Position numbers and translations under genes: made by a program
Part shown: piece after piece, positions 29,651-43,788 of the stretch
Layout: each line of letters opens with the position of its first letter
How positions within the stretch are numbered: position 1 is the first letter of the stretch
DNA from: Candidatus Binatia bacterium
GTDB lineage: Bacteria; Desulfobacterota; Binatia; HRBIN30
DNA: 64,000 bases
Assembly: GCA_038245295.1 (NCBI GenBank)
Contig: JBBRSP010000029.1
Location: 14,972 to 78,971, forward strand
Direction of reading: 5' to 3'
The notes under the pieces: generated by a model
The model's input: the letters and a program-made list of their open reading frames with translations, nothing else
Told to the model about the DNA's origin: nothing
Database searches by the model: none

Positions 29651-31159
29651 TCACCCGGGTTGCCTGCGGCGGCCAAGATTGGCGCAGCCAACCAGAGCGC
29701 TCACGGCAAGGCATGTCCAGGCGAAGGTGTCACCGATGGCATCGTAGATCGTACGCTGCGCCAGTGGCTCGATCCTGGCGTTCAGGGTGGCAGGTTTCCC
29801 CGAGGCGGCCTCGGCCACGATCGTGCCGTAGGGATCGATAATCGCCGAGACGCCAGTGGTTGTCGCGCGAACCACCCACGTGTGGTTCTCCACGGCCCGT
29901 AGGATCGCGTGAGTCAGGTGCTGCTGTGGTCCCGCACCGTCGCCGAGCCACGCGTCGTTCGAGAGAATCACGAGCGCCTTTGCGTCGTGATTCATCCGTC
30001 GGCGTACGAGGTCAGGAAAGATTCCCTCAAAGCAGATGGCCACGGCGGTACGTCCAAGTTGTGTCTCCAGCCAGCGCGGCTCTTCCGCGGCAGAAAACGT
30101 CCGCACACGCTCGAAGCGGCGACGGACGAAGTCGATGTTGAGGGGGAAATACTCGACGAAAGGTAACAGGTGCTGTTTGTCGTACCTGCCGGTGAGCTGC
30201 CCGTCGCGCGTGAGGTAAAAGGCCGAGTTGAGATACTCGGGTTTGGCGGCATCGAGGTCCTCATAATGCGGTGCACCGACTATTAGATCGGCGCCGAAAC
30301 TGCGCAGCACTGCGGCGATGCGGGCCTGGAAGCGCGGCTCGCGCCCGAGGAACATAGTTACCGCTGCCTCAGGCCAGACCACCAGCGTCGGGTGTGTGTC
30401 GGCGGCGGCTGTGGCCGTCAGCGCCAGGTAGTTTTCCAGACCTTCACCGTATTGCCCCGGCTGCCACAGGGCGCTGTCATGATTGTTCCCCTGAACAACC
30501 AACGTCGACACACCCGGACCCGGCGAAGGTGCGGTGCCGACACGCCAGGCGCCGTAGGCGACGACGATGGAGACAGCCACGGCGGCCACGCCGACATGGA
30601 CGGCTGGGCGTTGCCGCGAGCCGGGATGCAAAGCTGCCGCAAGTGCCGCGTTTACGAAGGCGAAGAGAAAGGACAGCAGGTAGACCCCACCAAGATCGGC
30701 CGCTTGACGTAGCCAGAGGAAGGGGGCCGTCGCATAGCCGAGTAGGAGCCAGGGCACTCCGGTCAATAGATGGGCACGCCCGAACTCAACGGTCACCCAG
30801 AGCGCCGCGGTCAAGGCCGGTCCGAGCAGGACGCCGCGACGATAGGTTGCCGCGCCGATGGCGAACACGGCGTAGTACGGTGCCCAGAAGACCAGTGATC
30901 CGGCAGCGCAAAACAGAATCGCAAACCACAGTGGCTGCTCGTAGTAGAAGGCGATCGCCGCAGGCACCCAGTAACCGAGGCTGAAGTTCGTGATGACTCC
31001 CCACGCCAAGCCGGCAAGGGCGCGCCGGCGCCAGGGCAGGCCATCCAAGGCGCGCAGCAAGGGAATCAACGCCACCCAGGCAGTCCACGGCGTTGGCCAC
31101 GGTGGAAAGGAAGCGACGTAGAGTGCGGCGGACAACAGCAACAAGAACAGCCGCGTCAC
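29651..31159 (-). CDS. lnt: Apolipoprotein N-acyltransferase (Lnt-like)
   Basis: Multi-TM N-terminus, GVPWLLLGY, VQGN, triad contexts WPEAA / YDKQHLLPFVEY / ICFEG, SNDAW, RAVEN, TGVSAIIDPYG. GTG 31159 overlaps the kinase stop (GTGA). Confidence 0.9.
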   Translation of the reverse strand: MTRLFLLLLSAALYVASFPPWPTPWTAWVALIPLLRALDGLPWRRRALAGLAWGVITNFSLGYWVPAAIAFYYEQPLWFAILFCAAGSLVFWAPYYAVFAIGAATYRRGVLLGPALTAALWVTVEFGRAHLLTGVPWLLLGYATAPFLWLRQAADLGGVYLLSFLFAFVNAALAAALHPGSRQRPAVHVGVAAVAVSIVVAYGAWRVGTAPSPGPGVSTLVVQGNNHDSALWQPGQYGEGLENYLALTATAAADTHPTLVVWPEAAVTMFLGREPRFQARIAAVLRSFGADLIVGAPHYEDLDAAKPEYLNSAFYLTRDGQLTGRYDKQHLLPFVEYFPLNIDFVRRRFERVRTFSAAEEPRWLETQLGRTAVAICFEGIFPDLVRRRMNHDAKALVILSNDAWLGDGAGPQQHLTHAILRAVENHTWVVRATTTGVSAIIDPYGTIVAEAASGKPATLNARIEPLAQRTIYDAIGDTFAWTCLAVSALVGCANLGRRRQPG

Positions 31160-33753
31160 GAGGGCAGGGCACTTTCCGCGGTGGGCAGATAGACGAGCAC
31201 GGTTGTGCCGCTGCCGACGGTGCTCTCGATATCGATCCAACCGCCGTGGTTCTTCACGGCGCCGTAGGCGATGCTCAGGCCGAGACCGGTGCCGGCGCCG
31301 ATCGGCTTCGTCGTGAAAAATGGCTCGAACACTTTTTCCCGAAACTCCGGGGCAATGCCACAGCCGTTGTCCTGGATCGAAACAACAACGCAGTGCGAGG
31401 CCGGGGCGTCATCCTTCCAGAACGTTCGAATGAGGAGTCGCGGTGCGGCAACACCGGCTATGGCATCCAACGCATTCGTCACGAGGTTGGTCCAGACATG
31501 CGCCAACTGGGCCCCGTCGAGCGAGAGTGATTCCGCCACCCCGTAATCGCGTTCGACCACCGGCCCAAGACTGCTGAGCCGATTGCCGAGCAGTCGCAGG
31601 CTCGCGTCAATCGAGTCGCCGAGAACAGTCGGCGCGCGCTGGCCGCGCTCGGCGCGCGCGAACAGACGCAAGTCATCGACGATCTTGCGAATACGTTCGG
31701 AGCCCTCGGTGCAGATCTCGACGAGAAGCGGCAACTCACGCCGCACGTAGGGCAGGCGTGTCCGCGTTCGCACGGACTCGAGCACGCCCACGCCGTCGGG
31801 TGCGCCGGCGACGATGTCCTCGTACGCGGTCAGCGCCGCCTCGATACGCGTGAGATAGTCGGTCAGGTTCGCCAGGCCACCGTGGATGAAACTCGCCGGA
31901 TTGTTGAGCTCGTGTGCGACGCCGGCCACCAATTGGCCGATCGACGCCATCTTCTCCGCCTGTACAAGTTGCGCCTGGGCGCTTTTCAATTCGTCATAGG
32001 CACGGCTCAAGTCGCGATTCGATGTGCGCAGGGCTGCGGTTTGCTCACGCACCTTGGCGTCGAGTGTCTGCGCCAACTCGTCGAGCGCCTCATAGGAACG
32101 AGCATTCTGCAAAGCGATCGCGGTCTGGTCGGCCAGGGTGCGCAGCAAGGCAAGGTCGTCGCTGTCGAAGGGTTGCCCCGACCGTTTGGCACCGAGCCCG
32201 AGAGCGCCGATCGACGTCCCGCGGAAGCGCAACGGCAGCAGCAAGGGGAATATTCCGCGTTCGATCGGTGTATCGGAGATCGGAGTGGCCGCCAGACACT
32301 GCCGGATGAATTCCGGGGCTTCGCCTTCCACCAAACTACCATCGGCCTGTCGCGACCATTGCGTGTAGTGGTCGTTGTCGATCAGGTACACATGTGTCGA
32401 GTCGAGGTGCATGGCATCACTCAGGACACGCGTCACCTGCGCGATGATCTCATGACGATCGAGCAGCGTCACCATCAACGCACTCACCTCGCTGACGGTG
32501 GCACGATAATCGAGCCGCGTGCGATAGAAGGCTCGGTCGATCGCTTCCTGCACGATCGCGCGCAGGGGATTGAGTCCGACAGCCAGGGCGAAGACGAACA
32601 GGAGGCTGACCGCCTCCCGATGTTGGTCGGCAAAGCCCGGCATCAACCGTGCCGCGACCTCCAAGGCAAAGGAATAAACGCCGACGACGACGAGGCTCAG
32701 AAGGGCATACTCGAAGCTCCAGCGTACGACACGATCAATATCAAAGAGGTCGTGGATCGAAATCGCGTAGGCAACGCTGCCTTGCAGCAGCGGTATCAAC
32801 AAGAGCGAAAACTGCACCGGAAAGCTGCCACCGGAGATGGCGTTGTTGACGAAGGCGAAGAATGGCAGGACGCTGGCGGCAATGAGCCCGGGCAAGACTG
32901 CCTTGATGCGGAGACGTGTCAGAGACTCACGATTCTCACGATACCGGTAGGCTAGCGCCGCCAGAAAGAATGCGATGCTACTGGCGTGGTAGAGATAGGT
33001 GATGTGCAGCGGCCACAGTCGGGGCGGATGGTCGAAGACATTCGACAGCACGAGAACCGCCAGAGCGAGGCCCAGCCCGTATGGCAGGACATGCAGCAAT
33101 CGGGCGCGTTGGCTGGGGCGACGCTCGATGGGGAATACGAGTGCCAGATGAATCCATGTCGCTGCAAAAAAGCACTCGAGCACCAGGTTGACGCGACTCA
33201 GCCACGGGAAGTTTGGCAGGTGCAAAAAAACGGCGGTGATCGGATACAGCCCGGCAACCAGGGCCTGGAGCAAGAAAACCCTCGCCTGGTAGCCGCCTGG
33301 CTGCAGAAACGCGACGATCAATCCCAAGACGAGGTATGAGCCGCCAACAAATAGAATCAGGCCGTAGATTTGCAGGTAGTCGCGACGGTTGAACTGGCGC
33401 GACGCGATGGTTCGTTCGAAGAACGCTCCGTCCTTCGAGAAGGTGTAACGAAACGACGTTCCGACTGGTTGGGCCGCCACCCTGGTGTAGACAGCGGCAC
33501 TATCGCTCACCGGCATTCCATCGACGGCAACCACGACGCTGTGAAACAGCGCGCTGCGGTCCTGCGGCCAGTCGAACGTGCTCACCGTCGGAATGGCAGC
33601 GTTCGGCATCAGCAAAAAGCCGGGGAAGGTGGCGCCGAGCCATCGCAGGCTGCAGCTCCCGGCATAGGCCGCCATCGCGGCGGCGATCAACAGAGCGAGT
33701 ATGGGGACGACATAGGCGCGCCAGGTGGCCCGTCGGCTTGTTTCAGTCGTCAT
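31156..33753 (-). CDS. Membrane sensor histidine kinase (extracellular PDZ-like segment, multi-TM, GAF, HisKA, HATPase)
   Basis: VAVDGMPV (PDZ-like), several TM helices, GAF-type [66 protein letters not shown]. Confidence 0.92.
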
Positions 33754-33855
33754 AGAGAACCGATCGCCCCACGCGGATGGTTACCACGCGGCACGCCACA
33801 CCAACAACTGCCTTGGTAGAAGTTGGTCCACTTGAAAACCGAGGCGGCGAGGATT

Positions 33856-34100
33856 CGTCATTCCGGCGAACGCCGGAATCTCCCCGGCATTTCTGCGATT
33901 CCGGCCCAGGAGATCCCGGCTTTCGAGTGTGTCGATTTACTCGGAAACCAAATGTGAAACCGAGCAGACCTTTCCGTCATACCGGCGAAAGCCGGTATCT
34001 CGCCAGCTTCCGAGGCTTCCAGCAGGGGGAGATCCCGGTTTTCACCGGGATGACGTTGCTCCACTTTGGTTTTACGACAGTCTCTTTCGCCGGGATGACG
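33856..34100. repeat. Cluster of GTCAT(T/A)CCGGCGAA-type REP-like palindromes
   Basis: CGTCATTCCGGCGAACGCCGGAATCT (33856), CGTCATACCGGCGAAAGCCGGTATCT (33975), GAGATCCCGGTTTTCACCGGGATGACG (34029), and a split copy at 33910-33924 / 34085-34100. Confidence 0.75.
33925..34084. mobile_element. 160-bp MITE carrying a REP pair, inserted into another REP
   Basis: TIRs GAGTGTGTCG / GAGACTGTCG (8/10) and TTTC duplication at 33921-33924 and 34085-34088. Removing the element restores GAGATCCCGGCTTTCGCCGGGATGACG. Confidence 0.7.
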
Positions 34101-34147
34101 TTGCCTACCCTTGGGAATCAGACGGACCCGCTACCACTCAGAAGGGC

Positions 34148-34254
34148 GGGCAGTTTACTTCCCACTGCAGAGGGATCGTGGGCAGAATCCTTCCCACTCC
34201 GATTGGTCAAAGTCCACGTATACGAGAGCGAGGCTCCGCGGCATCATTCGTGCG
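34148..34254 (+). promoter_or_regulatory. sigma54 promoter with paired enhancer boxes for the kinase/response regulator operon
   Basis: GGGCA-N6-TTCCC at 34148 and 34180; CGGCATCATTCGTGC (GG 34240-41, GC 34252-53). Confidence 0.7.
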
Positions 34255-34277
34255 TGTTCATTCCCATCGAGATCGCC

Positions 34278-35054
34278 ATGAACTCAGAGACCTTCAGTGA
34301 CAATGCGCAGACGCGCAAACTGTACGACCTCGGATCACGACTCACGCGCGTCGCCCACGAGATCAACGTCCCGCTGAGTTTGATCGTCGGTAGTCTCGAC
34401 GCCCTGGCGCAGTATACGGACACGCTGGCCGACTATGTTCTGACGGAGAAGGAGCAAAGCTCTACGGAGCCTCTGGCGCGGCGCGCCGTGGACATCGATT
34501 ACGTCGCGGCCCACACGCCAAAGTTGATTGCCATCTGTCGCGAGGGCACACAACGATTGCAGCACATCGTTGGTCAGCTGCGCAGCTACTCGCATCGCAA
34601 GGATGCGGCCGTGCAGGGCATCGAGTTGACAGACGTCATCGCGGCGGCATCACGGCTCGCGTCCCAGGGCGCGACCCACACGCCCGAGCTTCACCTGCCG
34701 GCTTTGCCGGCGGTGCGCGGCGACGCCAACTCCCTGGAGCAAGTCTTCGTCAATTTGATTTGCAACGCCATGGACGCGGTGGCCGACTGCCCCGATCCTC
34801 GGGTTTCGGTCATCGCTTGCGTCGAGGCCGACATCATCACGGTCATGGTTCGCGACAATGGTCCCGGCGTTGCACCGGAGATCGCCTCGCGCATCTTCGA
34901 GCCGTTCTTTACGACCAAGCCGCGACGGGTTGGCCTTGGTCTCGGTCTGGCGATTGTCCACGAGATCATCGCCGACCATGGCGGCACGATCTGTCTCGGC
35001 AAACCAGAACGTGGCGCCGAATTCATTGTGCGTCTGCCAGCGGAATCGCTTTGA
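34278..35054 (+). CDS. Sensorless cytoplasmic histidine kinase (HisKA + HATPase)
   Basis: ATG 34278; VAHEINVPL, EQVFVNLICNAMDA, DNGPGV, FFTTK, GLGLGL. The upstream in-frame extension is REP/enhancer DNA. Confidence 0.85.
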   Translation: MNSETFSDNAQTRKLYDLGSRLTRVAHEINVPLSLIVGSLDALAQYTDTLADYVLTEKEQSSTEPLARRAVDIDYVAAHTPKLIAICREGTQRLQHIVGQLRSYSHRKDAAVQGIELTDVIAAASRLASQGATHTPELHLPALPAVRGDANSLEQVFVNLICNAMDAVADCPDPRVSVIACVEADIITVMVRDNGPGVAPEIASRIFEPFFTTKPRRVGLGLGLAIVHEIIADHGGTICLGKPERGAEFIVRLPAESL

Positions 35055-35087
35055 CGCTGTAGCCTCAGTCGGCTACGCGAGGGGGCA

Positions 35088-36518
35088 ATGGCATCAGGCG
35101 TGTCAAAGCAAGCGATTCTGGTGGTGGATGACGAGCCCGCGAGCGTCCAGCTGCTGCGCATCACGTTGGGTATGGACTACGAGGTGCACACCGCGACCGA
35201 CGGCGCCGCGGGCCTCGTCCTCCTGGAGCAGCATCCGGAGATTGCCCTGGCCATCGTTGACCAACGAATGCCGGGCATGAGCGGTACGGAATTCATCCAA
35301 CGAACCATCGAGCCCTATCCGCAACTCATTCGCATCATCCTCACCGGCTACACGGATATCGAATCGCTGATTGACGCGATCAACGCAGGGCGTGTCTACC
35401 GCTATCTGACAAAACCGTGGGACAAAGAGGAGCTGATGCTCACGGTGCGACGCGGTCTCGAGGTGCATCGACTGGAGAGCGAAAACGCCCGGCTCCACGA
35501 GGAGCTGCGGCTGGCCAACAACCGCTTGCGCGTCGAGAATACGCTACTGCAACGCGAGGCCCGCGGACGCCATCGCTTCGAGGAAATCATTGGCTCCAGC
35601 CCGGCCTTGCGAGGCACACTCGACATGGTCGAGCGCGTCCTGCCGTCTGACACCACCGTGTTGGTCCTCGGCGAAACCGGTACCGGCAAGGAACTGATCG
35701 CGCGCGCCATCCACTACAACGGGCCGCGCGCCGACAAACCGTTCGTCAGCGAGAACTGTGGTGCCATTGCGCCGGACCTCCTGAGCAGCGAACTGTTTGG
35801 TTACTCCAAAGGAGCCTTCACTGGGGCCGTCACCGACCGACAAGGATTGTTCGAGTTCGCCAACGGTGGGACTCTGTTTCTCGATGAAATCGGCGATTGT
35901 CCCGCCGATCTACAGGTCCGACTGTTGCGCGTTCTCGATCAGGGCGAAATCCGTCGTGTCGGCGACAATCAAAGGGTCAAAGTCGATGTCCGGATCATCG
36001 CGGCAACCCATCACGACCTCGAGAAAGACGTCGCCGAAGGCCGCTTTCGCAAAGATCTCTTCTATCGCCTCAGTGTGTTCACCGTCAGCCCGCCGCCCTT
36101 GCGGCAACGCCCGGAGGACATTCCTGTCCTGGCACAGCATTTCGTCGAGAAATTTGCGCGGCGCCATTCCAAAGCTGTGCTGGGGCTGACTCCGGATGCC
36201 ATCGGCATGCTGCTCGCCTATCCCTTTCCAGGCAACATCCGCGAGCTGGAAAATGAAATCGAGCGTGCCTTTACCCTGGCCGACAACGAGATGCCGATCA
36301 CCCCGGACCTCCTTTCGGCACGTTTCAACCAACCAACCGCCGAACCACCCGCCCCGGCGACCTCGCTGCGAGGTGCTGTCGAGTCTTTCGAGGCTGACTA
36401 CATACGCGAGGCGCTAGCCCGCCATGCCGGTGTGCAAACCCGCGCCGCCAGCGAGCTCGGACTGTCGCGCCGCGGCCTCTTCGACAAGTTGCAGAAGTAC
36501 GGCTTGGCCAAAGCCTGA
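35088..36518 (+). CDS. NtrC-family sigma54-dependent response regulator (REC-AAA+-Fis HTH)
   Basis: [42 protein letters not shown]-terminal HTH. Confidence 0.95.
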
Positions 36519-36531
36519 GCTCGGCCGGTTC

Positions 36532-36637
36532 GGGCAATCTTGTTCCCACGCGGCCACGCCACTGGGAAGTAAACTGCCCACCGGCGCCGGCTGCGGGCGC
36601 ACATGTCGTCCACGATGCTGGCGGCACGGCCCTTGCG
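36532..36637 (+). promoter_or_regulatory. sigma54 promoter with paired enhancer boxes for the LuxR-type gene
   Basis: GGGCA-N6-TTCCC at 36532 and inverted GGGAA-N6-TGCCC at 36564; CGGCACGGCCCTTGC (GG 36623-24, GC 36635-36). Confidence 0.75.
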
Positions 36638-36649
36638 TAGTTCGTGTGT

Positions 36650-37843
36650 ATGGATTCGACTCAGCTGCTGCGGATCTCGCCCCGACCTTTACCCACCAAA
36701 TCATCGCGCACACCACCGGAGCTGACAGAGCTCGTGGAGCGTCTCTACGATGCCGCCGTCGCTCCCGGGTTGTGGTCGGATGCAATCACTCATCTCGCTG
36801 CGGCACTGCGCGGCGCGGCGGTGCTGCTGCACTTGCGCTTCCCACACGCCGACGATCCGGGCTGTGCCGTCGCCTGCGGCATCGGCCCCACCTATGTGGC
36901 TCGTTACTCCGCCGAGTTCGCCGCGAACGATCCGTTTCTCGAGCCCGCCTGTGACATTGCGACAGGCGCCGTTGTGGCCATGGGCGACGTGCTCGGCGCC
37001 AAAGATCTGAGCACGAATCCCTTCTATGAGCATTGGATGCAGCCGCAAAGACTACTGCCAACCGGTGGATTCGTCAGCGTCATCACCCGGCATCGCGAGC
37101 AGCCGCACACGACCCTGCACGTCTTCGAGAAGTGGGGCGGATCACGCCTCGATAAACGCGCCGTCGACCTGCTGCGCGCCTTGTTGCCTCACCTCCGGCG
37201 CGCCGCCGTCATCAGCGATGCCTTGCAACAGGAGTCGGCGCGGCGGCAAGCCTTGGAGCACCTGCTCAACCGCGGCCCCCTGGCGGTGTTTCTCGTCGAT
37301 CCACGTCGACAGGTGTTGTCGGCCAACGAGCAAGCCAAGTACCTCCTGTCGCTCGGCGATGGCATCGAGGTTGGCAACGACGGATTGCAGGGCGTGGGAC
37401 CCGATGGTGCCGCTGCTCTAGCAGCGGCGATCGAAGCTGTCCGGCGTGGTTCCGGTGATCAGGTTCTGAGACTGTCGCGCCAGGGCGAACGCCGCGCGCT
37501 GATGGTGGTGGTCACACAGCCACCTGGCATTGCGGCCGACGCTGAAGTCCCGGCGACACCTGTCGCATTGATCGTTGCCGATCCGGAGCAGCGCGGCGCT
37601 GTGCCGATAGCACACCTGCAATCCCTCTTCGGGTTTACGCCGGCGGAAGCGCGGGCTGCTTGGCTCATTGGCCACGGGCTCCGTATAGACGAAGTCGCCG
37701 GGCGCCTCGGGGTTCGAATCGAAACGGTCCGGGCCCACCTGAAGCAGATCTTCGACAAAGCCGGTGTTTCGCGACAAGCAGAGCTGGTGCGCCTCCTGCT
37801 GAGCAGCCCGATTGTCCTGGCGCAGCCGTGGGCTCGCGGTTAG
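36650..37843 (+). CDS. LuxR-type HTH regulator with GAF-like/PAS-like input
   Basis: LYDAAV..W, LLPHLRRA, PAS-like segment, FGFTPAEAR...ETVRAHLKQIFDKAGVSRQAELV. Confidence 0.88.
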   Translation: MDSTQLLRISPRPLPTKSSRTPPELTELVERLYDAAVAPGLWSDAITHLAAALRGAAVLLHLRFPHADDPGCAVACGIGPTYVARYSAEFAANDPFLEPACDIATGAVVAMGDVLGAKDLSTNPFYEHWMQPQRLLPTGGFVSVITRHREQPHTTLHVFEKWGGSRLDKRAVDLLRALLPHLRRAAVISDALQQESARRQALEHLLNRGPLAVFLVDPRRQVLSANEQAKYLLSLGDGIEVGNDGLQGVGPDGAAALAAAIEAVRRGSGDQVLRLSRQGERRALMVVVTQPPGIAADAEVPATPVALIVADPEQRGAVPIAHLQSLFGFTPAEARAAWLIGHGLRIDEVAGRLGVRIETVRAHLKQIFDKAGVSRQAELVRLLLSSPIVLAQPWARG

Positions 37844-37917: not shown

Positions 37918-40900
37918 TCAACGGACAGCCAAGCAACTAGCGTAGACCGTCGGTGGATGATCCAACCCATCGTCGAGCGTTAGACTTCCGGAGGCGCCGT
38001 AGCTGACGGAGACCGTGGTCGCGGCCGTGGCAATGCCCAGGGTACCGGCTTCAAAACATGGCTTGTCGACGGCAAAGACGAGGGACGAAGAAGATTCGAT
38101 ACGTGCTTCGCCACCGAGCGATTCACTGACCGCCGTCCCGTCGAGCTGGATCGTCTTTGCCAGGCGATCCCATACGACGGTGAGATTGCGCAGCTCTGCC
38201 TGGACCTCCACTGCCGGGCTCGTAAACTCATCCCTTACTCGCACACGGCCGTTAAGGGTCACGCTCAGCGTCCCCGGATCGCAGGTTGGCATAAGCTGGA
38301 ATGCGGAAAGACTGACGTCGGATTGCAGCGAATCCGTCGTCACCTCGAGGCGGCCGCCGTCCGGCAGCACTATGCTGAAGGGCCCGTTCAGGATTGCGCT
38401 GACGCTGCGCAATCGGCACGGGCTTGGCCCGAAGCCGAACCGCGTAACGGTCAGATTTTGGCCGAGCAGCATCGTGAACGCGGGGCTCCCATCGCTGAAC
38501 TGAACGTCGGCGTTCATCGCCAAATTGAAGAGCACGTTCGACGGTAAGATCACGCTAGGACACAGCCCAACGGCGGTCAGGGTGGCCTTCCCTTGGAGTA
38601 AGGCCGTGCCCTCGGTGGCTGCTACCGTACAGGCGGCCATTTCGATCGGGATGCGGATGGCATCGGAGCTCGACTCGACACACTCGCTGGAGAAGTTGCC
38701 ACTGAGATCGCAGCGGTCCGACGAACCGGCGAAGGAGAAGACCGCGGCCACGATGGGCTCGAGGCCCGGCAGCGTCGCGATGGCTCGCACCAGGGTCTGC
38801 GCCGCGCCGGCAATACCCAGAGGACTCGGCGGACAGCCGAACGCGGCAACCTCGACCGCGACGACAATCTCATCGATTGTAATGCGTTGGTCGCCGTTCC
38901 GATCACCCGCCGTGCAGGCGGGAGCCGTGTCGGTGATCGCTGCGTTGACCAGGCCGACGAGCTCATCAATAGTGACGGTACCCGACATATCGCAGTCGCC
39001 AGGGCAGAGCGCCGCACTTGCGCGAGCCGACCCCAGTGACAGCAATGCAAGTCCAAGCAACCCCAGCCGGGCAGGAAGGCGTCGCGTCGCGACTCGCCGT
39101 GCCACCTTCACGCGGCCGGTCACGCGACGCCGATACAGTCGGCTCAAGAGAAGCAGGGTGAGCCCGAAGCTTAGGAATGGCGGCGCGGTATCGTCGACGT
39201 CGCCGATCGCGCACCCGGAAGTCGAGCCCGCCGCCACGGTGCGTGTCGAAGTCGATTCGCGACCTAGTGTTGGCGTTGGTGTCGGTGTTGGTGTCGCCGA
39301 AACCGCGATGGCTCCCTGGCAAGCATCACCCACGCCGTCTTGGTTGCTGTCGCGCTGGTCGATGTTGGCGACACTCGGGCAATTGTCGAAGGGATCGGTG
39401 ATCTCGTCGCCATCAAGGTCGGCCGCCGTAGCGACACTGATTACGCCATCGGCGGTTACGTTGGCGAAGACGGTATCGGCGGCAGCGAGAGGGCTGACCA
39501 GTCGTTGGATGGCGCGCGACTCATCGTTGCACGTCGCCGGAGCCTGACAGTCCGAATCGCTCCGGCAGACACCCTGGCGCTCAACGCACAAGCCACGTCC
39601 GGGAATATGCGTCGGCACACAGAAGGTGTTCGGACCGCACGGTTGATCAGCGAACTCCGGGTCGCAGCTGACCGTGGTGGGACGCAGACAGTAGCCGGGT
39701 GGGACGAAACATGTGGCGTCGAGGCGACCACAGTCAGCCGGGGACGAGCAGGCGCGGCCGTTGTCGCTACACACGCCGGCACTGACCGAGCCGATCGAGG
39801 TGACGGTTCCGTGGTCACCCGGCATTTGCGGGTGGAAGCGACTCGTCGTCATGGCTGCGCCGCGGCGTTGGTCGCGCGCGTTGTAGGTTTGTAAGACGAG
39901 ATCCTGACGATCGCCGTCGTCATTCAAGTCGGCATTTTGATCCGACTCGAGGGTCAGAAAGGTGACCGTGTTGTCGGTGACGCGGTATGGTTGGCGTGGA
40001 TCGCAAGCCTCGAGGCGGCAGGGAATCGCCGCCTGACCGGTGTTGGTGAGATGCTGTGACTCCAGATCATACACTTCCATCACCGCATCATTCGTGTCGC
40101 CGTCGCCGTTCAGGTCGGCCTTACCGTCCCCCGCTTCGATCGTCCGGAACGCAAGCAGCTTCGACGAGAGAACGAAGTCGTCGGTGGTCGCGTCAATGGC
40201 GATGAGGCGGGAGGCTTCCGCGTCGTAAAGTTCGATGAAGTGCGCGACGTGCAAGTCGTGGAGGTCGGCACCCTCGGTGTGGCGGAATGCGTTGCGCAGA
40301 AAGGCAATCCAACGCCCGTTGGCGGCGAGTTGGCTCGCGGAGCGCTGGAGGTTGGTCCAGTGCGTGGGCTGGCTCAGCGGTGCGACATGGACGACAAGGT
40401 CGTCCGTGTTGCCGTTCTCGTCGAGATCCTGCTTTCCCTGTGCGGCCTCGGAGACCAAGGCGGCGATCCACCCATCCGTTAGTACGACGCTGGTGGCAGC
40501 CATGCCGAGATTGACGGGCGGCGCCGAGCTGGCGAGGTCGACCAAATGCACGACCTGATCCAGGCTGTCGCCATCGCCGTTCAGGTCGATTCCGTCTTCG
40601 GGGACCAGCAGGGCGGCGATCGTTCCGTGGATCGCTACGATGGTCGCCGAGCCAAATCCGCGCGGCGGTGTCTGGGGATTATGAGTGTCGAAGACGCGGA
40701 GCACGGTGTCGTTCAGATCGCCATCGCCGTTGAGATCGCCTTGGAGGGCAAGCGGATCGGGTTCTGAGACGAATACCTGGGAGCAGGGAACCCCACTCGT
40801 CCCGTCGCAGCCCGATGCCAGATTGGTCAGGTTCGTGGCGTCGCTCTCAAACGCAACGGTCTGGCCATTGCCGCTGATCGACGCATGACGCGAGGCGCCG

Positions 40901-43788
40901 TTCGGGTCACTCTCGTTCGGCGCCAGGCTGACACGCCGCGTGTACCCAGTAACTCGATCGTGCACGAACACGTCGGGGCAGTTTTCCGCCGCCACACCAT
41001 CGAGATCGTTGTCACACAGATTGTTCGAATCGCCGGGCACCAGATTGGAAGCGCGGCTGGTGAACGCCACAAAGCGTCCGTCGTCGGATATTGACATGAA
41101 CTGGTCGGTGGAAGCGCCATCGGCCTGGGCACCTTCCGAACTCACGCTGACCCGGCTGGTCGTACCGGCCGTGCGATCGCGTAAGAAAACGTCGAGTACG
41201 CCGTTGGTATCCCCGGGTACGAGATTGGTTGCGGCACTGACGAAGGCGAGGTAACGGCCATCGGCTGACAGCGCCGGACTGAACGAGTGGTTGTTCCCCT
41301 GCTCCATGGTGGAGCTGACGCTGGCCAGTTCGAGGATGTCGTGGTCGCGGACGGTGACGTCGGCGCAACTTGTCGACGTCGTGCCGAGGTTGAGGCAGAA
41401 ACTATTGTTGTCATGCGACGCGAAATTCTTATCGAGGGTGCTGATGGCGAAGACGCGTGAGGTCGCGTCCATGGCCGGAGGCTGGGCTATTGCCGGTGCC
41501 TCGATCGGCCCGTCGCCGACGTTCTTGGTCAAGAGGGTGATCCGCGGGCGGATGTCGAGGCCGTCGCCGAACGGGTCCCTCAGCGTCAGCCAGCCCCGCA
41601 GTTCCGTGCCGATGAGCAGATTGAGATCCACGAGGTCATTTGATCGCGACAGATAGGCGACGGCCGAGCCATCGGCGGACATGCTGGGAAAGGAAGAGTT
41701 CGCGCCGCCCAGGTGGCCCGCATGCTCGAGGAACATAGAGCGGCTCATAGCGGCGGAGCGCACGGTCCCGGGCTCGTCGAAAATCCCGTTGCCGTCGCTG
41801 TCGCGGTCGATGGCGAAAACCTGGGTGACCCCAGCGATGTCGGTGACCGTCACGGCGACGTGCCGGCCGGTGGTCGAGAGCGATGGCTGAGACGACAAGG
41901 TTCCGGAGGGGACATCCGCGTCACTGACGGTCAAAGCCACGGTGCGGCCATCCGCCAGGGCACGCACGAAGGAGCGCGCACCCGTCTCGCTGGTCTGGGT
42001 CGGTACAAGGTTGTTGGCGCGGCTTTCGAAAGCAACCTGGCGGCCGTCCTTGGACAGCCAGGGTCGCTGCGATGCGCCATCGGCAGGCGTCCCATCGGAC
42101 GCCATGCTTGCCTGACGCACGACATGGCGGACATCGGCTCCCTCGGCGGTGCGAAAGTAGAGGAGACCATGCTGCAGCACGAGGCTGCGTCCGTTCAGCA
42201 CCGGCGCCGCGTCGACGCCGAGGGCCTGTCCGGCGGTCAGCTCGACGGCTGCTGTGTCCGTGAGCTGAAAGACGCGCAAGATCGTGTCGAAGGAATCACC
42301 GTCGTGGTTGGCGTCTTCGTGTCCCTGATGCGGCTCGGCTTCGAGAAAGGCGACGATGTCGTTCTCGGCGACCACGGCTGGGAAACTGAAGGGCTCTTCG
42401 TGAATGCGCGCCGCGGCGCGTCCGGGCGCCGCGGTTCCCAACGGCTGCTGCACACCGGTGTGACGGTTAGCGAGCAGAACCACGTCGTCGAGGGAATCGC
42501 CGTCGCCGTTGAGGTCCTTGCCTTCGATGGATTCGGGCACCACCGTGATGAAAAGATCACGCGCCTCGATGAGCGCATCGAGAGGCACCGGATCACCGGC
42601 CTCCAGGCGATAACCAACACAACGCGAGGCGGGACAGCCGGCGTCCGTGTCGCAGCGGCTGCCGTTGTTCTGGCAGGCGCCGGCGCCGAAGCGCGGGATG
42701 AGGACCGGCCCGACGTTGTTGTGAAAGCGTGAGGTGAAATCAAAAATGGGATCGCCGCAACTACCTTCGGCGCATGGCTGGCGCCGCGCGATGCGCAGTA
42801 CCGTCTCTTCGGCGTCTGCCGAACCGAAGAGGCTCAGTTCGTTCGGTGCGTCCGGGTTGGCGCGCGGCTCGAAGATCGGCGGGAGACTTCCGCCTTCGGG
42901 GGCATACGAATGCAGGAAGCTCAGGTCGGGAATACGGATAGGCTCGGCGCTGTTCGGGAATGCCGGAAAGGCGCTGCTACCGCGCAGCAGGCGCGCGATC
43001 GGGATGCGGTCGCCCAGCAGGATGCCACGCCAGTCCATCGGCAGCAGAAGGTTGCCGTCGCGGTCCGTCGTGAAGCGAATCTCCGTCGCCCGTCCGGTGC
43101 AAGGCGGATTCGGTATGGCGCAAAGGTCCTGATAGCTGTTGGGAGGTGGCAGGGCCGTGAAAGAGGTAAACTGGGGGTGCGGAGTGTCTCCGCAGGTACC
43201 GTCGATGGCGTAAAGTTCATCGACGCACGCGGCGACCGTGGTCATCCCACGGCAACTCGTTGTGGCCAGAGAACAGGGCAGCGGCTCGCCTTGAGCGGTG
43301 ACGGCAATCGCCGCGGGGCCGGCGAGGGTACGATCGTCATCGGTCGCGTCCAACAATCTGTCGGTATCGGGGAAGGGGAACCGCAGTCGCCCGGCCTCGA
43401 GAGTCGCCACCGGCGCGCTGACACAGGTGGGATGGATCCCAGCAGTTGTCTCGCAGGCGTTCAGCTCAGCAGTGATGGCGCCGCAGTCTGGCGTCAGGAC
43501 GACGAGGTTTGGCGGCCCCGCGGGTGGCTTGAAGGCGACGGTGACGACGGCCGCCGCCGGAAAGGCGCGTCCGACGTCACAGGTTGGGCTGAGCCGCATG
43601 TCGATCGGTTCGCCGGGGCTCGCGAAGGGACGGTTGATGATGCCGCGCGCCGCACGGAACGAGTTGGTAACGCCGGGAATCTGATTGCAACTGGCGGCCG
43701 CCACGTGGGCCAGAACCAGGCCCAGCGCCACCGCTGTCGCGATCCGGATTGTTCGACTCAAAACTTCTAACTGCAAAACCCGCTTCAC
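37918..43788 (-). CDS. Giant secreted protein: Ca-binding propeller repeats, TolB/PD40-like propeller, TSP3-like repeat, internal sorting signal, dockerin-like module (possible two-gene fusion)
   Basis: Signal peptide; seven D-x-N-x-D-G-D-type repeats; SADGRYLAFVSAATNLVPGDTN; DNCPSVANIDQRDSNQDGVGDAC; TPTPTPT linker; GC-TM-RRR; second signal-like segment; CPGDCD...VTIDELV. Confidence 0.8.
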   Translation of the reverse strand: MKRVLQLEVLSRTIRIATAVALGLVLAHVAAASCNQIPGVTNSFRAARGIINRPFASPGEPIDMRLSPTCDVGRAFPAAAVVTVAFKPPAGPPNLVVLTPDCGAITAELNACETTAGIHPTCVSAPVATLEAGRLRFPFPDTDRLLDATDDDRTLAGPAAIAVTAQGEPLPCSLATTSCRGMTTVAACVDELYAIDGTCGDTPHPQFTSFTALPPPNSYQDLCAIPNPPCTGRATEIRFTTDRDGNLLLPMDWRGILLGDRIPIARLLRGSSAFPAFPNSAEPIRIPDLSFLHSYAPEGGSLPPIFEPRANPDAPNELSLFGSADAEETVLRIARRQPCAEGSCGDPIFDFTSRFHNNVGPVLIPRFGAGACQNNGSRCDTDAGCPASRCVGYRLEAGDPVPLDALIEARDLFITVVPESIEGKDLNGDGDSLDDVVLLANRHTGVQQPLGTAAPGRAAARIHEEPFSFPAVVAENDIVAFLEAEPHQGHEDANHDGDSFDTILRVFQLTDTAAVELTAGQALGVDAAPVLNGRSLVLQHGLLYFRTAEGADVRHVVRQASMASDGTPADGASQRPWLSKDGRQVAFESRANNLVPTQTSETGARSFVRALADGRTVALTVSDADVPSGTLSSQPSLSTTGRHVAVTVTDIAGVTQVFAIDRDSDGNGIFDEPGTVRSAAMSRSMFLEHAGHLGGANSSFPSMSADGSAVAYLSRSNDLVDLNLLIGTELRGWLTLRDPFGDGLDIRPRITLLTKNVGDGPIEAPAIAQPPAMDATSRVFAISTLDKNFASHDNNSFCLNLGTTSTSCADVTVRDHDILELASVSSTMEQGNNHSFSPALSADGRYLAFVSAATNLVPGDTNGVLDVFLRDRTAGTTSRVSVSSEGAQADGASTDQFMSISDDGRFVAFTSRASNLVPGDSNNLCDNDLDGVAAENCPDVFVHDRVTGYTRRVSLAPNESDPNGASRHASISGNGQTVAFESDATNLTNLASGCDGTSGVPCSQVFVSEPDPLALQGDLNGDGDLNDTVLRVFDTHNPQTPPRGFGSATIVAIHGTIAALLVPEDGIDLNGDGDSLDQVVHLVDLASSAPPVNLGMAATSVVLTDGWIAALVSEAAQGKQDLDENGNTDDLVVHVAPLSQPTHWTNLQRSASQLAANGRWIAFLRNAFRHTEGADLHDLHVAHFIELYDAEASRLIAIDATTDDFVLSSKLLAFRTIEAGDGKADLNGDGDTNDAVMEVYDLESQHLTNTGQAAIPCRLEACDPRQPYRVTDNTVTFLTLESDQNADLNDDGDRQDLVLQTYNARDQRRGAAMTTSRFHPQMPGDHGTVTSIGSVSAGVCSDNGRACSSPADCGRLDATCFVPPGYCLRPTTVSCDPEFADQPCGPNTFCVPTHIPGRGLCVERQGVCRSDSDCQAPATCNDESRAIQRLVSPLAAADTVFANVTADGVISVATAADLDGDEITDPFDNCPSVANIDQRDSNQDGVGDACQGAIAVSATPTPTPTPTLGRESTSTRTVAAGSTSGCAIGDVDDTAPPFLSFGLTLLLLSRLYRRRVTGRVKVARRVATRRLPARLGLLGLALLSLGSARASAALCPGDCDMSGTVTIDELVGLVNAAITDTAPACTAGDRNGDQRITIDEIVVAVEVAAFGCPPSPLGIAGAAQTLVRAIATLPGLEPIVAAVFSFAGSSDRCDLSGNFSSECVESSSDAIRIPIEMAACTVAATEGTALLQGKATLTAVGLCPSVILPSNVLFNLAMNADVQFSDGSPAFTMLLGQNLTVTRFGFGPSPCRLRSVSAILNGPFSIVLPDGGRLEVTTDSLQSDVSLSAFQLMPTCDPGTLSVTLNGRVRVRDEFTSPAVEVQAELRNLTVVWDRLAKTIQLDGTAVSESLGGEARIESSSSLVFAVDKPCFEAGTLGIATAATTVSVSYGASGSLTLDDGLDHPPTVYASCLAVR

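Follow-up and report, generated by a model that had tools for sequence, protein, structure and literature searches.

Acyl-handling enzymes adjoin multi-transmembrane (TM) histidine kinases in the RpfF/RpfC, CqsA/CqsS and LuxM/LuxN systems, whose synthases are cytoplasmic and use acyl chains carried by acyl carrier protein (ACP) or coenzyme A (CoA), whereas Lnt works on the periplasmic face and takes its acyl chain from phospholipid. The present analysis concerns a 64,000-nucleotide stretch of the Candidatus Binatia bacterium genome (contig JBBRSP010000029.1, positions 14,972 to 78,971; hereafter the window), in which the gene for an accessory Lnt paralogue is coupled to that for a membrane sensor kinase, beside a sigma54 cascade and the gene for a large exported protein. 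One relevant precedent is AatD, portrayed in two reports as an additional Lnt homologue, catalytically intact, for which acylation of the N-termini of proteins that are cleaved by signal peptidase I (SPase I) and have no lipobox has been proposed (10.1101/2020.09.23.310854, PMC8689077). The window resembles it in having a spare intact Lnt homologue and candidate clients of the same kind. The differences are that AatD needs an N-terminal Gly and is about 10% identical to Lnt (PMC8689077), whereas the candidate clients of the window clade begin X-Cys, its enzymes pass the Lnt family model, and the clade is tied to a membrane sensor kinase. The secretion genes aatPABC were absent from the recurring neighbour clusters of 69 regions. 

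A second precedent is PrsK/PrsR, in which a membrane kinase and a REC-sigma54 activator are combined with a dedicated membrane processing enzyme and with scattered genes for exported (PEP-CTERM) proteins, each preceded by enhancer and -24/-12 sites (PMC1569441, PMC9850573). The layout of kinase, sigma54 activator, exported-protein genes and processing enzyme is shared with the window. The PrsK/PrsR enzyme is a C-terminal transpeptidase (exosortase), whereas the one here is an N-terminal acyltransferase, and the window sensor has an added PDZ domain. Against the PrsK and PrsR models (TIGR02916 and TIGR02915), the sensor scores 105 bits with a cut-off of 300 and the activator 374.6 bits versus 502.6 for PrsR; a PDZ-less 7TM relative from the same genome aligns with PrsK over the full length of the model yet stays below the cut-off, which no match in this genome reaches. 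No description of an Lnt-sensor kinase pairing was found in the literature searched, which covered few subscription papers. The module is real, conserved and apparently undescribed, and it is larger than first seen.

The Lnt gene (29651..31159, minus strand) encodes 502 amino acids with LNT_N and CN-hydrolase domains, and its product scores 286 bits against the Lnt model TIGR00546 (cut-off 132.9). The solved E. coli Lnt aligns with it, giving a catalytic triad of E264, K328 and C376, and the equivalents of E. coli W237, E343, P346 and W415 are kept. Its GTG start codon overlaps the TGA stop codon of the kinase gene, as GTGA. By phylogenetic placement this protein is an accessory paralogue and not the housekeeping copy. 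The genome holds seven lnt-like matches, of which the housekeeping copy lies at C2:138006 (contig C2, position 138006). A tree of 97 Lnts (FastTree, midpoint-rooted) splits into groups of 38 and 59 (support 0.997/0.99), and an enlarged tree of 124 splits 41/83 (0.993/0.964), without an outgroup or AatD. The 38-member group contains a one-per-genome clade that includes C2:138006, while the 59-member accessory group contains all sensor-linked copies, with the window Lnt inside it. The triad is intact in 58 of the 59 accessory Lnts, the single exception being a frameshifted gene. Housekeeping Lnts share with the window clade the fold, the triad and the E343, P346 and W415 equivalents; they differ in forming a separate clade with different neighbours, and their F82-G-G region is replaced by Y-Y/W-E/Q in the window clade. 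An earlier note on this DNA, made from the sequence alone, had proposed a dedicated Lnt paralogue, and such a paralogue linked to this sensor is well supported. Of the three conditions that the note named as refuting its proposal, two do not apply here, namely a sole housekeeping lnt and an adjacency that is not conserved. A phylum-wide scan found matches at E<=1e-85 in 2 of 301 genomes, both within the class. As side observations, a frameshifted accessory lnt adjoins a radical SAM gene in the same genome (C3:375986-377197), an lnt fragment adjoins RHS-like remnants (C2:367500-368153), and accessory or odd lnts adjoin RHS-like genes at three loci in relatives (L160, L229 and L258).

Linkage of Lnt to the sensor was counted for 66 of 121 sensor matches (those of at least 103 bits, with one split duplicate dropped) in 61 genomes, and on the lnt side for 149 of 150 matches listed, beyond which 72 further lnt matches exist. 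Among the matches listed, an lnt lies within 2 kb of at least 31 of the 66 sensors, within 10 kb of at least 38 and within 25 kb of at least 40, and low-scoring lnts were found near a sensor in 1 of 71 cases. The linkage is undercounted, as two loci (L189 and L190) contain lnt neighbours beyond the matches listed. The pairs come in four orientations, and at least 25 genomes have a pair separated by less than 2 kb. In further genomes of the class, an lnt among those listed stands no more than 6 kb from at least 9 of 17 sensors, and a close lnt is present in 23 of the 24 genomes that have a close sensor. It is usually the lnt that touches the sensor gene, often with a 4-bp overlap. Sensor and Lnt tree distances are correlated (r=0.84 for 38 pairs; 0 of 5000 permutations). 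For 17 of the pairs a housekeeping marker was available, and among these r is 0.85, and about 0 versus species distance, with the reservation that kinship and cassette inheritance inflate the correlation. Sensor and Lnt, judged by their mirrored trees, have been inherited together, which is not evidence of binding. The adjacency noted in the window is conserved among relatives and co-diversifying.

Turning to the sensor kinase itself (31156..33753, minus strand; 865 amino acids), its order is TM-PDZ-7TM-2TM-GAF-coiled coil-HisKA-HATPase, with a periplasmic PDZ domain at about residues 37-120 and a bundle of seven TM helices resembling a G protein-coupled receptor (GPCR) at residues 123-336, followed by two more TM helices. 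A Pfam scan of the window protein called GAF, HisKA and HATPase and no PDZ. Profile comparisons match the segment to the PDZ domains of YlbL, HhoA and DegP (E 1.5e-4 to 5e-3), weak Pfam PDZ matches occur in 7 of 56 family members, and Atlas neighbours also point to PDZ; the evidence is weak but concordant, and it bears out the PDZ-like segment of the earlier note. A structure model of the N-terminal 560 residues, built with 56 homologues, has a confidence (pLDDT) of 89.5 and places one TM helix, a beta-rich periplasmic domain, seven helices, two helices and GAF in that order. The best GPCR match of the 7TM bundle is GPR6 (root-mean-square deviation 3.8 A over 210 residues), with a Z score of 14.5 that should be read against the roughly 13 reached by helical bundles without kinship; other matches include lipid- and peptide-binding receptors. 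The family PF16927 is present in distant homologues, and none of the 56 close members matches it directly. The genome contains three sensor matches, and a second, divergent sensor-lnt pair lies on C2. A scan of genome contigs with the full-length kinase matched mostly generic kinases. An N-terminally truncated sensor paralogue lies at C3:332574, with a repeat similar to 33855-34105 of the window just upstream. Contig C16 (13003-17632), the source of the PDZ-less relative mentioned above, carries two PDZ-less 7TM-GAF kinases beside ACP-like, acyl-CoA dehydrogenase-like, FabF-like and desaturase-like genes, and a similar set occurs at one locus in a relative (L186).

The window also holds a large Cys-rich exported protein, c6 (37918..43788, minus strand; 1956 amino acids), which is a candidate substrate of the Lnt. 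Its N-terminus has an A-x-A motif of the SPase I type followed by S-C-N-Q-I-P-G, and PD40 and TSP3 repeats follow. The lipobox consensus, [LVI][ASTVI][GAS]C directly after the h-region, is absent. Among 35 c6 N-termini, Ala stands two before the Cys in 33, and L, V or I occupies lipobox position -3 in three; this position commonly carries a charged or polar side chain, and the c-region ahead of the Cys is polar. The residue directly before the Cys, which would be +1 of the mature protein, is S in 15, A in 9, G in 4 and another in 7. Since the number of Cys in c6 residues 3-213 is even in 38 of 39 sequences, the Cys at +2 is the odd one. In the structure model the first residues, 1-4, are disordered (pLDDT<50), and both observations are what a site of modification would show. 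A Cys at +2 also occurs in two other exported families near accessory Lnts, c11 (A|GCxC, in 10 of 10 pattern matches) and c12 (|WC); c11 is the only candidate client that starts with Gly. Under a home-made signal-peptide heuristic, Cys at +2 occurs in 16 of the 135 exported proteins encoded close to accessory lnts or sensors, compared with 1 of 68 in control regions. The N-terminal domains of c6, c11 and c12 were rejected as homologous (hhalign probability at most 4.5%), and a fold search with c6 gave weak Ig-like matches (TM-score about 0.2).

Each Lnt subtype has its own exported partners: c6 and c33 for type I, c2/c3 for type II, c11 for type III and c12 for type IV. The family c6 is present in 20 of the 61 relatives with up to 10 matches per genome, while Lnt mostly has one to three copies, a sortase-like profile of multi-copy client and few-copy enzyme. 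Across 251 genomes, a close Lnt (E<=1e-72, which also admits some other accessory types) is found in 66 and c6 in 51; both occur in 47, c6 alone in 4, Lnt alone in 19 and neither in 181. By comparison, a close sensor is missing from 43 of the 66 genomes in which a close Lnt occurs. Fifteen of 75 new lnt matches lie within 25 kb of c6 with no close sensor in that range, three genomes titled Myxococcota or Spirochaetales are examples of Lnt and c6 without a sensor, and one locus (L235) has lnt and c11 without one. The eight of 61 genomes with c11 are the same eight that carry type III Lnt; c3 is uninformative for co-occurrence because it is mostly single-copy within its own cassette. The Lnt is thus associated more closely with the exported family than with the sensor, a pattern suggesting that its main task is protein lipidation.

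Divergent from the Lnt-sensor pair lies the regulatory part of the module. A sensorless histidine kinase (34278..35054, plus strand; 258 amino acids, no TM) is 32% identical to the kinase core of the sensor, and homologues hold the equivalent position in four other loci. It is followed by a REC-AAA+(sigma54)-Fis activator with GAFTGA present (35088..36518, plus strand), whose orthologues, 58-68% identical, stand beside nine other type I sensors, and by a LuxR-type gene (36650..37843, plus strand) that is a likely local target of the activator; using the window gene as query, no LuxR-type match was found at other loci. The shared promoter architecture claimed for this region is real. Dyads of the form GGG[AC]A-N6-T[TG]CCC stand 32 bp apart at 34148/34180 and at 36532/36564. 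The first tandem pair of enhancer-like sites (34147..34196, plus strand) precedes a weak -24/-12 box upstream of the sensorless kinase (34238-34254; 6.1 bits), while the second (36531..36637, plus strand) includes a sigma54 -24/-12 promoter upstream of the LuxR gene (36621-36637; 12.3 bits), a level of at least 12 being reached in 102 of 5469 genes; these scores use weights based on the consensus. In one genome of another family (G034), the same dyad pair and a sigma54 box lie upstream of the sensor/activator, c6 and c33 genes, and at 4 of 5 c12 loci a sigma54 box lies upstream of c12. A genome-wide dyad regulon was rejected, given 32 strict matches versus 14-33 with other spacer lengths; the same scan reported one tandem pair, that of LuxR, the sensorless-kinase pair being masked by an over-long gene call. 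An interspersed repeat that we take to be REP-like (about 33855-34105, no strand assigned) has up to 216 blast matches per position across the genome, and a 24-mer within it has 88 exact copies; as a genome-wide repeat it is a passenger and was rejected as a regulatory part. The layout given in the earlier note, with the lnt triad, the GTGA coupling, the TM block, the sensorless kinase, the sigma54 activator and the LuxR gene, was reproduced. Its extent (29651..37843) contains the core; it missed the exported protein at 37918-43788 and took in the repeat, which does not belong.

Our preferred account, to which we give slightly less than an even chance, is that a dedicated, AatD-like Lnt lipidates exported proteins whose expression is governed by the sensor and sigma54 cascade, with the lipidated product probably being sensed in turn. 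Genome comparison directly supports its starting points, namely the accessory status of the Lnt, its catalytic motifs, its co-inheritance with the sensor, the activator and the exported families, and the conserved enhancer and sigma54 sites. SPase I cleavage would leave an X-Cys N-terminus on a client without a lipobox, and Cys376 would carry an acyl group from phospholipid to that N-terminus. A precedent is the acylation of SPase I-cleaved CexE by the Lnt homologue AatD (10.1101/2020.09.23.310854). The ligand of the PDZ domain and the 7TM pocket would then be either the acylated end or an acyl-peptide that has been shed. Phosphorylation of the activator would fall to the sensor, possibly assisted by the sensorless kinase; sensor kinase and activator would in this way switch on the client genes and create a positive feedback.

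Several observations weigh against lipidation of these proteins. The Cys in c6 and c11 was required by the search patterns and is invariant by construction, and the odd Cys of c6 could pair with a distant or intermolecular Cys. Genome-wide, 28 of 876 predicted exported proteins have Cys at +2, many of them in xCxGDC domains, the 16 cases near accessory lnts or sensors derive from about four families, and the type II partners c2/c3 are without it. An N-terminal anchor could be redundant because window c6 has a C-terminal anchor-like tail. Control by the cascade is also open to question, as no sigma54 box was matched upstream of seven motif-found c6 copies in the genome and the region upstream of window c6 scores at most 4.5 bits. 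Finally, the mirrored trees are explained by cassette inheritance alone. Beside these points, some features of the exported proteins may be recorded. At about residues 1520-1600, window c6 has a CTERM-like tail (GC, TM helix and Arg run) with no stop, and it continues into a second signal-peptide-like segment and an xCxGDC domain; other copies finish in PEP-CTERM-like or GC-type tails, the MYXO-CTERM and PEP-CTERM labels being presumptive. Many exported proteins on many contigs of the genome start A|x-C-x-G-D-C. The c2 proteins (for example L162:4438-4899) are small exported type II proteins with Thr at +3 and mostly hydrophobic-X-hydrophobic C-termini, the shape of PDZ ligands.

One alternative to lipidation, which is possible and on balance doubtful, makes the Lnt and the kinase a synthase-receptor pair. 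The Lnt would take a tailored acyl chain (desaturated, cyclopropanated or methylated) from phospholipid and join it by an amide bond to a small amine or a short peptide. Either the 7TM kinase or a cytoplasmic adenylate cyclase-AAA-TPR protein would read this diffusible signal, and the exported proteins would be no more than its regulon. It draws on a survey of 84 accessory-scoring loci, a selected set in which many were fetched for a nearby sensor or c6 and which includes one locus (L257) that is housekeeping by tree. A sensor lies within 6 kb at 40 of them and an adenylate cyclase at 16, never both; the regulator at sensor-less loci is an adenylate cyclase-AAA protein. Exported families are present at 48 and acyl-tailoring seed matches at 26, some of which may be generic methyltransferases. 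The tailoring genes encode cyclopropane fatty acid (CFA) synthases, desaturases, PlsC-type acyltransferases, FabF, ACP and B12-radical SAM proteins, and they flank Lnt at 12 of 16 cyclase-type loci, where they fit a signal better than an anchor and so count against the lipidation account. The same genes are found at only 3 of 40 sensor loci, which speaks against a signal there. The likeness of the 7TM fold to lipid- and peptide-binding GPCRs, the contact between lnt and sensor genes and the mirrored trees agree with a synthase and its receptor, but no conserved short precursor open reading frame was found among 1351 small ones at 72 loci, leading to rejection of a short peptide precursor, and the fixed unpaired Cys would go unexplained. 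According to one study, E. coli Lnt requires W237 for acyl transfer to the protein N-terminus (PMC6971011); all 21 type I Lnts examined have its equivalent, which disfavors a small-molecule acceptor, although Binatia-type housekeeping Lnts are without it. At 40 housekeeping-scoring loci, with shorter flanks of about 4 kb, there was no sensor, one cyclase, no tailoring gene and no exported family, and the idea that the kinase monitors canonical lipoprotein maturation is not supported. Lipidation and an acyl-amide signal are not mutually exclusive. 

Ordinary lipoprotein chemistry is an unlikely explanation. The X-Cys clients would be relaxed-lipobox lipoproteins made by Lgt and LspA, the paralogue a co-regulated extra Lnt that completes them and the sensor's cue unrelated. 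Two lipobox positions do match, with S, A or G before the Cys in 28 of 35 c6 proteins and Ala before that; moreover, the paralogue exceeds the Lnt equivalog cut-off and most relatives have at least two lgt copies. The charged or polar -3 residue and the polar c-region do not suit a lipobox, however, nor do V, M, T or Y directly before the Cys in 7 of 35 c6 proteins and W in c12. Copy number of lgt does not track the paralogue, on which ground a parallel Lgt was rejected, and lspA was found in four of five genomes and is single in each of those four. In passing, one genome (G034, loci L299-L306) has 12 lgt matches, several divergent copies of which adjoin large exported-protein genes, and several other genomes of its family (f4) have 6-10. 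Less probable again is a co-sensor, with Lnt and kinase forming a membrane complex whose kinase activity depends on the catalytic state (flux) of Lnt, much as transporter-kinase pairs work. The mirrored trees and a translational coupling that occurs in either gene order would suit such a complex, as would a link kept when the output domain changes: a sensor with an adenylate cyclase output (L259; probability 98.8%) is still attached to Lnt, the lnt of a Myxococcota genome standing immediately ahead of the gene for a PDZ-7TM-GAF homologue with adenylate cyclase at its end. That attachment agrees with the preferred account as well. Yet many pairs are divergent or 4-20 kb apart with exported-protein genes between them, close sensors are missing from most genomes with a close Lnt, and no lnt was found in the flanks retrieved for a basal subfamily of sensors to which loci L002-L008 belong. 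The lone apparent sensor-Lnt fusion (P0009, 1425 amino acids) was rejected, since its kinase match extends only to residue 689, beyond which the sequence is out of frame and rich in Arg (59 Arg in 195 residues); a tandem pair read through a frameshift is the probable explanation. Long open frames across three other lnt matches were likewise rejected as fusions, being overlaps.

Returning to lipidation by a dedicated Lnt, one recurring family may bear on the chemistry. At sensor-less loci we find c17, a family of membrane proteins of about 120 amino acids with a CxxxC/U motif; examples lie near C7:35400 in this genome and at loci L197, L310, L329, L331 and others in relatives. In 4 of 13 copies an in-frame TGA replaces the second Cys codon, with a hairpin downstream, and selA is present in all four of those genomes; a selA search of the window's own genome found none, and its c17 has Cys. 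By these sequence features, c17 is likely to be a new selenoprotein family, and its motif points to thiol chemistry at Lnt loci. A more elaborate circuit can be drawn from these parts, although we hold it only tentatively. Lnt would acylate X-Cys without Lgt or LspA to yield a lipopeptide hormone, a PDZ-capped, GPCR-fold kinase would read the acyl-peptide, the fatty acid would be tailored, the thiol would be kept reactive by the new membrane selenoprotein, and each genome would run several orthogonal enzyme-client-receptor sets.

All parts of the module belong to known families. If the lipidation account is true, their combination would add a further route of protein lipidation to those of Lgt-LspA-Lnt and AatD, with X-Cys clients that the lipoprotein predictors now in use would miss. 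The orphan PDZ-7TM sensors, which are widespread and related to PrsK, would also gain a candidate ligand; the stimulus of PrsK is termed obscure in one report (PMC1569441). Because enzyme, client and receptor have diversified together, the sets would permit direct specificity swaps.

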